DNA of 64,000 nt from an uncultured Coriobacteriaceae bacterium. GTDB lineage: Bacteria > Actinomycetota > Coriobacteriia > Coriobacteriales > Eggerthellaceae. Below the pieces are notes generated by a model that had not been told where the DNA came from, did not search any database, and saw only the letters and a list, made by a program, of their open reading frames with translations. The DNA lies in NCBI GenBank assembly GCA_902779135.1, contig CACZAR010000004.1, positions 308 through 64,307 of the forward strand, given 5' to 3'. The position numbers and the translations under genes are program-made. Shown piece after piece: positions 12,273-12,482 of this stretch (positions are counted from its first letter, which is position 1; every line of letters starts with the position of its first letter).

Positions 12273-12482
12273 ATGAATTTCGAAGATGTACCTGAAAGCA
12301 TTAAGAAACGCGCCGAGGCGTGCAAAACCCCGGAGGAACTGCTAGCGCTGGCTGTAGAAGAAGGATACCAGTTGACCGATGAGGAATTGGAAGCCGTCAA
12401 TGGCGGCATCCTGTTCTCAGACTGCACTTGGGACGATTGCGGCGATGTCGATTGCAAACTTTGCAAGGGCTTAAGCAAATGA
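12273..12482 (+). CDS. Nif11-type leader peptide RiPP precursor (GG cleavage motif, Cys-rich core)
   Basis: 69 aa: MNFEDVPESIKKRAEACKTPEELLALAVEEGYQLTDEELEAVNGG | ILFSDCTWDDCGDVDCKLCKGLSK. GGAGG RBS lies 5 nt upstream. A strong terminator follows. Confidence 0.7.
   Translation: MNFEDVPESIKKRAEACKTPEELLALAVEEGYQLTDEELEAVNGGILFSDCTWDDCGDVDCKLCKGLSK

Follow-up and report, generated by a model that had tools for sequence, protein, structure and literature searches.

How can a peptide that seems made for enzymatic modification be matured when none of the enzymes required is encoded beside it? This question is raised by a 69-codon open reading frame (ORF, 12273-12482) in a stretch of 64,000 nucleotides from an uncultured Coriobacteriaceae bacterium (assembly GCA_902779135.1, contig CACZAR010000004.1), which is called the window below and whose positions are used throughout. 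In a first-pass annotation of this DNA the ORF was described as an orphan precursor of a RiPP (a peptide made on ribosomes and modified after translation) with a good ribosome-binding site (RBS), and its coordinates and those of its core were all reproduced here. The ORF is a real gene under purifying selection, and its product belongs to a Nif11-leader family with double-glycine (GG) architecture. In our opinion it is probably, if not safely, a functional member of a dispersed set of RiPP precursors, matured in trans by enzymes whose genes lie at other sites of the genome, and exported through a C39-peptidase ATP-binding cassette (ABC) transporter. Four features had been overlooked in the first-pass annotation: i) orphan status is the norm in this family, ii) a Trp is shared family-wide, iii) a protein of ABBA fold recurs beside family members, and iv) the locus is eroded.

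The peptide matches the Pfam family Nif11 (PF07862) at E 8.6e-7 with 29.6 bits, where the gathering threshold is 23.8. Among 5.8 billion proteins 47 homologues were detected, with E values as low as 1e-38 and a precomputed match to PF07862 (Nif11) in all except three. When 1.84 billion cluster representatives were searched with a profile, 3,625 matched at E<=1e-3, of which 874 reached E<=1e-10; nearly all have 50-110 amino acids (aa). An identical protein is listed for 64 blocks of metagenome assemblies (ERZ27279962 and ERZ28613386 are among the samples with the exact gene), with the same island context in the six contigs shown, and a further protein, P0001, differs from it at two positions, both in the leader. 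No copy identical to the window was found in a genome-collection scan that holds one genome per species, so the source species is apparently not among these representatives; a scan of JGI metagenomes yielded distant relatives only (<=62% identity), mostly on short contigs, and added no orthologue contexts. No match to the peptide was obtained by tblastn in plasmid and phage collections, so there is no sign of carriage on annotated mobile elements.

The constraint on the gene can be followed through both halves of the peptide. Across nine orthologous loci in differing genomic contexts, the ratio of nonsynonymous to synonymous substitution rates (dN/dS) is 0.08-0.30 in the leader and, where synonymous sites are unsaturated, 0.08-0.19 in the core, whose synonymous sites are near saturation. 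As for conservation in close relatives, on which the first-pass annotation had made its claim depend, 13 positions of the core are the same in all 17 orthologues (D50, C51, T52, W53, D54, C56, C61, K62, L63, C64, K65, G66 and L67), which gives the pattern D-C-T-W-D-x-C-x4-C-K-L-C-K-G-L with the four cysteines C51, C56, C61 and C64. In the leader, C17, T19, E21, L24, G44 and G45 are invariant among 46 sequences. Peptidase-containing ABC transporters (PCATs) and their C39 peptidases recognise a double glycine preceded by hydrophobic residues at -4, -7 and -12 (PMC10885120), a pattern that V42, L39 and L34 of the leader fit, and the family profile gives weak matches in the Protein Data Bank (PDB) to CtA, the substrate of PCAT1. 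In the structural model of the peptide the leader forms three short helices of low confidence, and the predicted local confidence (pLDDT) of the core is below 50.

A small intracellular Nif11-domain protein, neither cleaved nor secreted, is suggested by the name of the Pfam family, taken from small cytoplasmic Nif11 proteins, and by the lack of an exporter in the window. Nevertheless, the invariant GG with its -4/-7/-12 hydrophobic pattern, the hypervariable cores behind conserved leaders in the family, the modifying enzymes and PCAT encoded near family members and the predicted disorder of the C-terminal part make this reading very improbable.

The signals around the gene point in the same direction as its coding sequence. 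An alignment of nine orthologue upstream regions shows that a block of about 90 nt accompanies the gene in unrelated genomic contexts, and the RBS is likewise conserved across differing contexts. This block contains a promoter-like element which, from its conservation between loci, may act as the promoter; a sigma-70 consensus scan of 11800-13000 called no promoter. In an Rfam scan of 11900-13000 only a single sub-threshold chance match was obtained, so the block is not a known RNA element. The start is likely at 12273 rather than 12252, because of the position of the RBS and because some orthologues (L119 and L125) have no in-frame ATG upstream; on the same grounds an extended ORF of 114 aa and a 76-aa start were rejected. 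An antisense ORF of 118 aa (12122-12478) was dismissed as a shadow ORF, as substitutions follow the plus frame. About 100 nt downstream of the stop codon there is a terminator, as had been proposed with a 13-bp stem; the stem is of 14+3 bp, followed by GGUUUU, and the fold has -29.1 kcal/mol and z = -6.5, with none of 200 shuffles equally stable. A simple terminator scan passed over this hairpin (12581-12617), presumably because the loop is beyond the scanner limit.

With regard to the enzymes, it had been claimed that neither a maturase nor an exporter occurs in the window, and three checks bear this out: i) tblastn detected no relatives in the 64 kb of the candidate enzymes described below (clusters 0, 3 and 7), ii) the sole protein with a CxxxCxxC motif is a methylthiotransferase of the MiaB/RimO type (57385-58746), and iii) all ORFs of at least about 425 aa are housekeeping genes, isoleucyl-tRNA synthetase (IleRS) being the only protein above 900 aa. 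The window is no exception among its relatives. The one-genome-per-species scan gave 171 of these, from which 79 loci were kept, almost entirely from ruminant-gut metagenome-assembled genomes (MAGs) of Eggerthellaceae, Atopobiaceae and other Coriobacteriia, often several per MAG; in these loci a hidden Markov model (HMM) of the leader found 155 precursor-like ORFs, and only one in the window. Orphan status is the norm for this family: of 41 precursors flanked to either side by 3 kb or more, 12 have a candidate maturase within 3 kb and 29 do not.

The same figures could be taken to mean that no maturase is needed, that is, that the product is an unmodified or a disulfide- or metal-bridged double-glycine peptide (a class II bacteriocin or a signal) which requires only a C39-ABC exporter. 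The lack of maturases near the 29 well-flanked precursors and in eight of the nine orthologue contexts agrees with such a peptide; besides, the four conserved cysteines could make two disulfides or hold a metal, many long-core relatives resemble zinc ribbons, and several bacteriocin models are approached (TIGR03949 with 18.8 bits against 21.5, TIGR01847 with 13.9 against 15.7 and PF10439 with 14 against 27.1). However, every one of these scores is under its cutoff, neither an immunity gene nor an exporter adjoins the gene and no PCAT is encoded in the window. The leader is of Nif11 type, family members stand directly upstream of radical SAM (rSAM)/SPASM and other enzymes in many loci, the model gives no folded core, and extracellular disulfides would be less likely in strictly anaerobic hosts. 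We consider this reading rather unlikely.

Maturation in trans draws its candidates from the neighbours of other family members. Clustering of these neighbours left three real recurrent partners, clusters 0, 3 and 7; the recurrent clusters 1, 2, 4 and 5 were rejected as shadow ORFs overlapping rSAM genes. Cluster 0, which adjoins precursors in 12 loci, is an rSAM protein of about 450 aa, with the NCBIfam models TIGR04463 (Cys-rich peptide maturase), Clo7bot, CefB, FlmE/OhkG, geopeptide and PapB as its top matches, and cluster 3 is a short rSAM protein of about 290 aa found in eight. Cluster 7, of about 340 aa, is encoded at most 250 bp from a precursor in seven of its nine loci (L088, L011, L020, L022, L061, L067, L075, L136 and L137), with four tandem copies in L022, and belongs to a family of at least 346 clusters of "hypothetical" Coriobacteriia proteins. 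It has no match in Pfam or NCBIfam, and its family profile found no PDB sequence at E<=10. On the other hand, the model of its member in L088 (P0168, 3347-4366; built with 32 homologues; pLDDT 92.3, predicted TM-score 0.89) shows five alpha-alpha-beta-beta repeats, and the top 50 Foldseek matches to it in the PDB are all ABBA-fold aromatic prenyltransferases. The best of them are bacterial tryptophan dimethylallyltransferases (5-DMATS, IptA, CymD, PriB and MpnD; E 2e-6 to 1e-3, TM 0.45-0.58), and the cyanobactin enzyme KgpF is also listed.

Candidate parts of such a system are found scattered in a single MAG. The MAG RGIG4359 carries a cluster-0 rSAM gene (L006), a cluster-3 rSAM gene (L013), an ABBA-fold gene (L011) and a bona fide PCAT gene (L010) on four contigs, each of which also bears a precursor gene; the PCAT has 836 aa with C39, ABC_membrane and ABC_tran domains and is encoded 7.5 kb from the precursor.

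The link from these enzymes to the window peptide is provided by L088, where an orthologue of 78% identity has the same core type (ILFADCTWDECNEADCKLCKGLKR; the window core is ILFSDCTWDDCGDVDCKLCKGLSK). The order in L088 is precursor, a 216-aa membrane protein, a 460-aa rSAM protein, the 339-aa ABBA-fold protein P0168 (2.4 kb from the precursor) and then genes for a 266-aa protein, TerC and DAGK, and these last three genes also flank the window gene in synteny. The rSAM protein, of cluster 0, is encoded 750 bp from the precursor on the opposite strand. It has the motif CNFECPYC (CxxxCxxC) and, near its C-terminus, CSECVWLPLCGGGC as a SPASM-type Cx2Cx5Cx3C motif, and its relatives form more than 80 clusters at 60-92% identity. 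In addition, precursors of the related core type WGDVCVGVACKVCRGY(KGCKCY) stand directly upstream of cluster-0 rSAM genes in seven loci (L002-L005, L007, L019 and L020).

The first-pass annotation had left two chemistries open for the cysteines, lanthionines and radical-SAM Cys-to-Asp links, and had argued from two C-x3-D spacings. That argument does not hold, as the acceptors D55 (D/Q/S/E) and D60 (D/N/S/T) vary among the 17 orthologues; D54 (C51+3) and D/E58 (C56+2) are conserved instead. The radical-SAM option gains indirect support from L088 and from the seven loci just mentioned, and loses the C-x3-D spacing. The likeness to ranthipeptides and other Cys-rich rSAM RiPPs (PapB/freyrasin, CteB, TIGR04463, Clo7bot and CefB) lies in the Cys/Asp-rich core and in the relatives' rSAM proteins, which score best there, whereas the Nif11-type leader, the unconserved freyrasin-type C-x3-D, scores under the cutoffs and the absence from the window of a maturase of the PapB/CteB/QhpD clade set the peptide apart. 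A Nif11-type precursor paired with an rSAM/SPASM enzyme also recalls TIGR04064, the "nif11-like peptide radical SAM maturase"; however, the relatives' rSAM proteins reach only 66-79 bits against a cutoff of 518.7 and are therefore of a different subfamily.

The lanthionine option fared worse. A class II lanthipeptide precursor whose LanM is encoded elsewhere is suggested by Nif11 as the classic leader of the prochlorosins, many of which are served by a single promiscuous ProcM in trans (PMC10783134), and by a core in which cysteines are accompanied by S49, T52 and S68. Nevertheless, T52 is the sole invariant Ser/Thr of the core against four invariant cysteines (S49 is S/A/Q and S68 is variable in the 17 orthologues), the window encodes no LanM- or LanC-like protein, its only protein above 900 aa being IleRS, and a non-exhaustive check of the annotated recurrent neighbours of the 155 precursors revealed no LanM or LanC either; this origin is extremely improbable. 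The resemblance to the prochlorosins (ProcA precursors) of marine picocyanobacteria concerns the organisation: a Nif11-type leader ending in GG and, in each genome, many precursors mostly remote from the enzyme, whose leaders are conserved while their cores are hypervariable. In contrast to them, no LanM was found here and the candidate enzymes are of the rSAM/SPASM type and of ABBA fold, the leader has only 45 aa, the peptides come from anaerobic Actinomycetota of the gut and the core of this orthologue group is strongly conserved.

The family alignment gives the ABBA-fold protein a possible substrate residue. Cores are hypervariable and Cys-rich, leaders are conserved, and a Trp is the only core residue invariant family-wide: it lies in the first four core residues of 91 of 101 Coriobacteriia precursors and in the first ten of 97 of 101, compared with none of 39 Firmicutes relatives in either case; the Firmicutes relatives are also without the ABBA-fold gene. 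A precedent exists in Moorena producens, where MppC (ABBA-type) geranylates a Trp of the Nif11-leader precursor MppE in a leader-dependent manner (PMC12715784). An L(X)4L motif (L34..L39 in the window peptide) is common to the Nif11-like leaders of both systems, and the prenyltransferase of M. producens is a soluble one; the ring-forming partner is a LanM in M. producens, whereas here the ABBA fold is only predicted and no such protein is encoded in the window.

From these elements the following route may be proposed. The 45-residue Nif11-type leader would act as a handle for enzymes whose genes are at other places in the genome; the most likely of these, an rSAM/SPASM enzyme from the ranthipeptide-type clade, would cross-link the four conserved cysteines into thioether rings; an ABBA-fold prenyltransferase-like enzyme may also act on Trp53 by prenylation; and a C39-peptidase ABC transporter would then cut after Gly44-Gly45 and export the 24-residue core. 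We infer the presence of the maturation and export enzymes in the source genome as well as the chemistry, the export and the biological activity of the peptide.

Several observations weigh against this route. The 64-kb window has no maturase, ABBA-fold gene or PCAT, nor is any of these found within 10 kb of the closest genome orthologue, in the related MAG contig L001, and in only one of the nine orthologue contexts (L088) are enzymes nearby. Even there the precursor and the rSAM gene, being on opposite strands, could be adjacent by chance, and in three further contexts L088-type rSAM orthologues (78-81% identity) are found by themselves, with no leader-HMM match within 7 kb, so that they could serve another substrate. 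The cluster-0 scores are far under the NCBIfam cutoffs (about 210-219 bits against 525, and 108 against 340 for PapB), and for this reason the chemistry of the named families cannot be transferred to the relatives' rSAM proteins. The ABBA assignment of cluster 7 comes from a modelled fold (best TM 0.5-0.58) and not from sequence similarity. W53 of the window peptide is core position 8, unlike positions 1-4 in most of the family. As for the leader, the proposal of a Nif11/TIGR03798 type stands for Nif11, with the Pfam match above threshold and the invariant GG, and falls short for NCBIfam TIGR03798 (25.3 bits, cutoff 32.3). Finally, the locus itself is eroded: a partner paralogue is gone and a neighbouring C11 peptidase gene is truncated.

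The surroundings of the gene have also been altered by an insertion. A 9.1-kb island (2908-12035; 56-61% GC, compared with 49-52% in the flanks) is inserted at tRNA-Val-GAC between the exact 45-bp repeats attL and attR. The gene was said to lie directly outside attR and to be separated by the island from tRNA-Val, and both statements are correct: the repeat ends at 12080 and the gene starts 192 bp further on, and in L001, which lacks the island, the orthologous gene comes immediately after the same tRNA-Cys/Gly/Val cluster. The original tRNA-Val terminator is now displaced behind attR, and its region is 89% identical to the sequence 3' of tRNA-Val in L001. In other assemblies of the locus an IS110 transposase or a different integrase fragment is found upstream.

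Two losses are visible by comparison. A second precursor paralogue adjoins the orthologue in L001, L086, L120/L122, L126 and L128, with a sequence ending in GGDSFWCPTATSCPNYEVMR and the core DSFWCPTATSCPNYEVMR, and may make up a two-peptide pair with it. The window lacks this paralogue, and the corresponding gap there is 41 bp (12137-12177) against 435 bp in L001 (9470-9904). The C11 (clostripain-family) peptidase gene, intact in L001 (626 aa, Pfam Peptidase_C11; 10393-12273, minus strand) and convergent with the orthologue, survives in the window as its last 63 codons, the final ones of which are overlapped by the precursor terminator hairpin. The first-pass annotation had named a CmpB-like membrane protein as the only neighbour; its CmpB likeness holds (PF06541), and the peptidase remnant lies between. 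Together the CmpB-like gene and the remnant fill the interval where L088 has the membrane protein, the rSAM/SPASM protein and the ABBA-fold protein.

The gene could accordingly be regarded as a stranded relic, intact and no longer matured, whose neighbouring system was lost by rearrangement beside an integration hot spot. The missing paralogue, the peptidase cut to 63 codons, the lack of an enzyme in the window, and the instability of the region, shown by the inserted island and by inversions when compared with L001 and L088, are all in keeping with this. On the contrary, no damage is seen in the reading frame, RBS, promoter-like block or terminator, the identical protein is present in many independent assemblies and P0001 departs from it by two leader residues, and most orthologues are equally orphan yet conserved. 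The invariant core and low dN/dS argue likewise for a working gene, but as a between-species measure they are compatible with a recent loss. We regard the relic as distinctly unlikely, and retain as the preferred reading a functional precursor matured in trans.

Features of the window at and around the precursor gene (positions in the window)
Feature	Position	Strand	Remarks
tRNA-Val-GAC	2833-2907		
attL	2863-2907		45-bp exact repeat partner of attR
Truncated integrase	3010-3597	-	island, beside attL
DmsABC-like operon	5905-9760		island; molybdopterin oxidoreductase with twin-arginine translocation (TAT) signal, 4Fe-4S and DmsC subunits
AbiEi	10444-11061		island
DUF3800	11181-11858		island
attR	12036..12080	+	duplicated 3' 45 nt of tRNA-Val-GAC; exact direct repeat
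Original tRNA-Val terminator hairpin	12089..12116	+	now displaced behind attR; terminator scan
Promoter-like element	12204..12232	+	-35-like TTTAAG 12204-12209, 17-nt spacer, -10-like TATGAT 12227-12232
RBS GGAGGA	12263..12268	+	4 nt 5' of ATG; direct reading
Precursor ORF	12273..12482	+	69 aa, MNFEDVPESIKKRAEACKTPEELLALAVEEGYQLTDEELEAVNGGILFSDCTWDDCGDVDCKLCKGLSK; direct reading
Nif11-type leader, residues 1-45	12273..12407	+	ends G44-G45; L34/L39/V42 at -12/-7/-4
G44-G45 codons	12402-12407	+	
Core peptide, residues 46-69	12408..12479	+	24 aa, ILFSDCTWDDCGDVDCKLCKGLSK
W53 codon	12429-12431		
Stop codon TGA	12480..12482	+	
Intrinsic terminator	12581..12624	+	GC-rich hairpin 12581-12617, then U-tract
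C11 (clostripain-family) peptidase pseudogene remnant	12595..12783	-	last 63 codons; tblastn 63% identity, E 2e-21
CmpB-like membrane protein	12915..14129	+	PF06541 ABC_trans_CmpB, E 5e-41

The CmpB-like protein is probably outside the peptide system, and it was rejected as a member because about 137 loci contain homologues of it in just two further contexts. One homologue (49% identity) is found in L129-L131 (8820-10154, minus strand), two genes from a stand-alone L088-type rSAM gene; this proximity is probably a coincidence, since there are only two such contexts.

Some further observations were made in the relatives. Loci from Firmicutes MAGs (L063, L068, L071, L073, L077, L078 and L079) contain tandem arrays of up to 11 precursor genes with a related leader, long zinc-ribbon-like cores (CPxCGS...CxxCG) and no early Trp. 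The leader profile matches 14 times in P0288 (1,544 aa) and eight times in P0319 (1,279 aa), in both of which a CKTPEELLALA-like helical unit is repeated. Peptidase-U32-like proteins recur beside precursors (L023, 2664-3524; L088, 1-627; L137, 1106-2539; L021, 10408-11793, minus strand); the one in L021 has an N-terminal domain that resembles the precursor leader, and the cluster in L137 also includes a B12-binding rSAM protein. In L136 (2458-2886, minus strand) a Cys/Thr/Val-rich ORF of 142 aa, containing CSCDTVVSTHVVCTCDTV and CTCDAECTCQDVCSCDGYQSCSC, lies in an rSAM cluster beside a Nif11-leader precursor and may be a second type of substrate.

Beyond the single gene, we tentatively put forward as a possibility, for which the case is weaker than for the window peptide itself, that these peptides form an undescribed RiPP class of anaerobic gut Actinomycetota, with hundreds of dispersed precursors that share an early Trp and would be prenylated in trans by an ABBA-fold enzyme, the Cys-rich cores being also cross-linked by a new rSAM/SPASM subfamily. 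The class would be prochlorosin-like in using one toolkit for many substrates, with different chemistry. Each of its parts is already known, namely a Nif11 leader with an rSAM maturase, maturation in trans and Trp prenylation of a Nif11-leader peptide; the new elements would be the combination, the host clade, the family size and an ABBA-fold protein that resembles no known prenyltransferase in sequence. This precursor family was not described in the literature that was searched.

Taken alone, the window offers a modest result, a conserved orphan precursor gene beside an integration hot spot, and the interesting biology is in the relatives. If maturation in trans is true, the modified peptides of ruminant-gut Coriobacteriia form a very large library that is still unexplored (3,625 representative clusters) and that cluster-based mining would mostly miss because the genes for precursors and enzymes are not adjacent. 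Two pairings can be tested, the window peptide with the rSAM protein of L088 and the window peptide with P0168, and confirming either of them would give new peptide-modifying enzymes from strict anaerobes.

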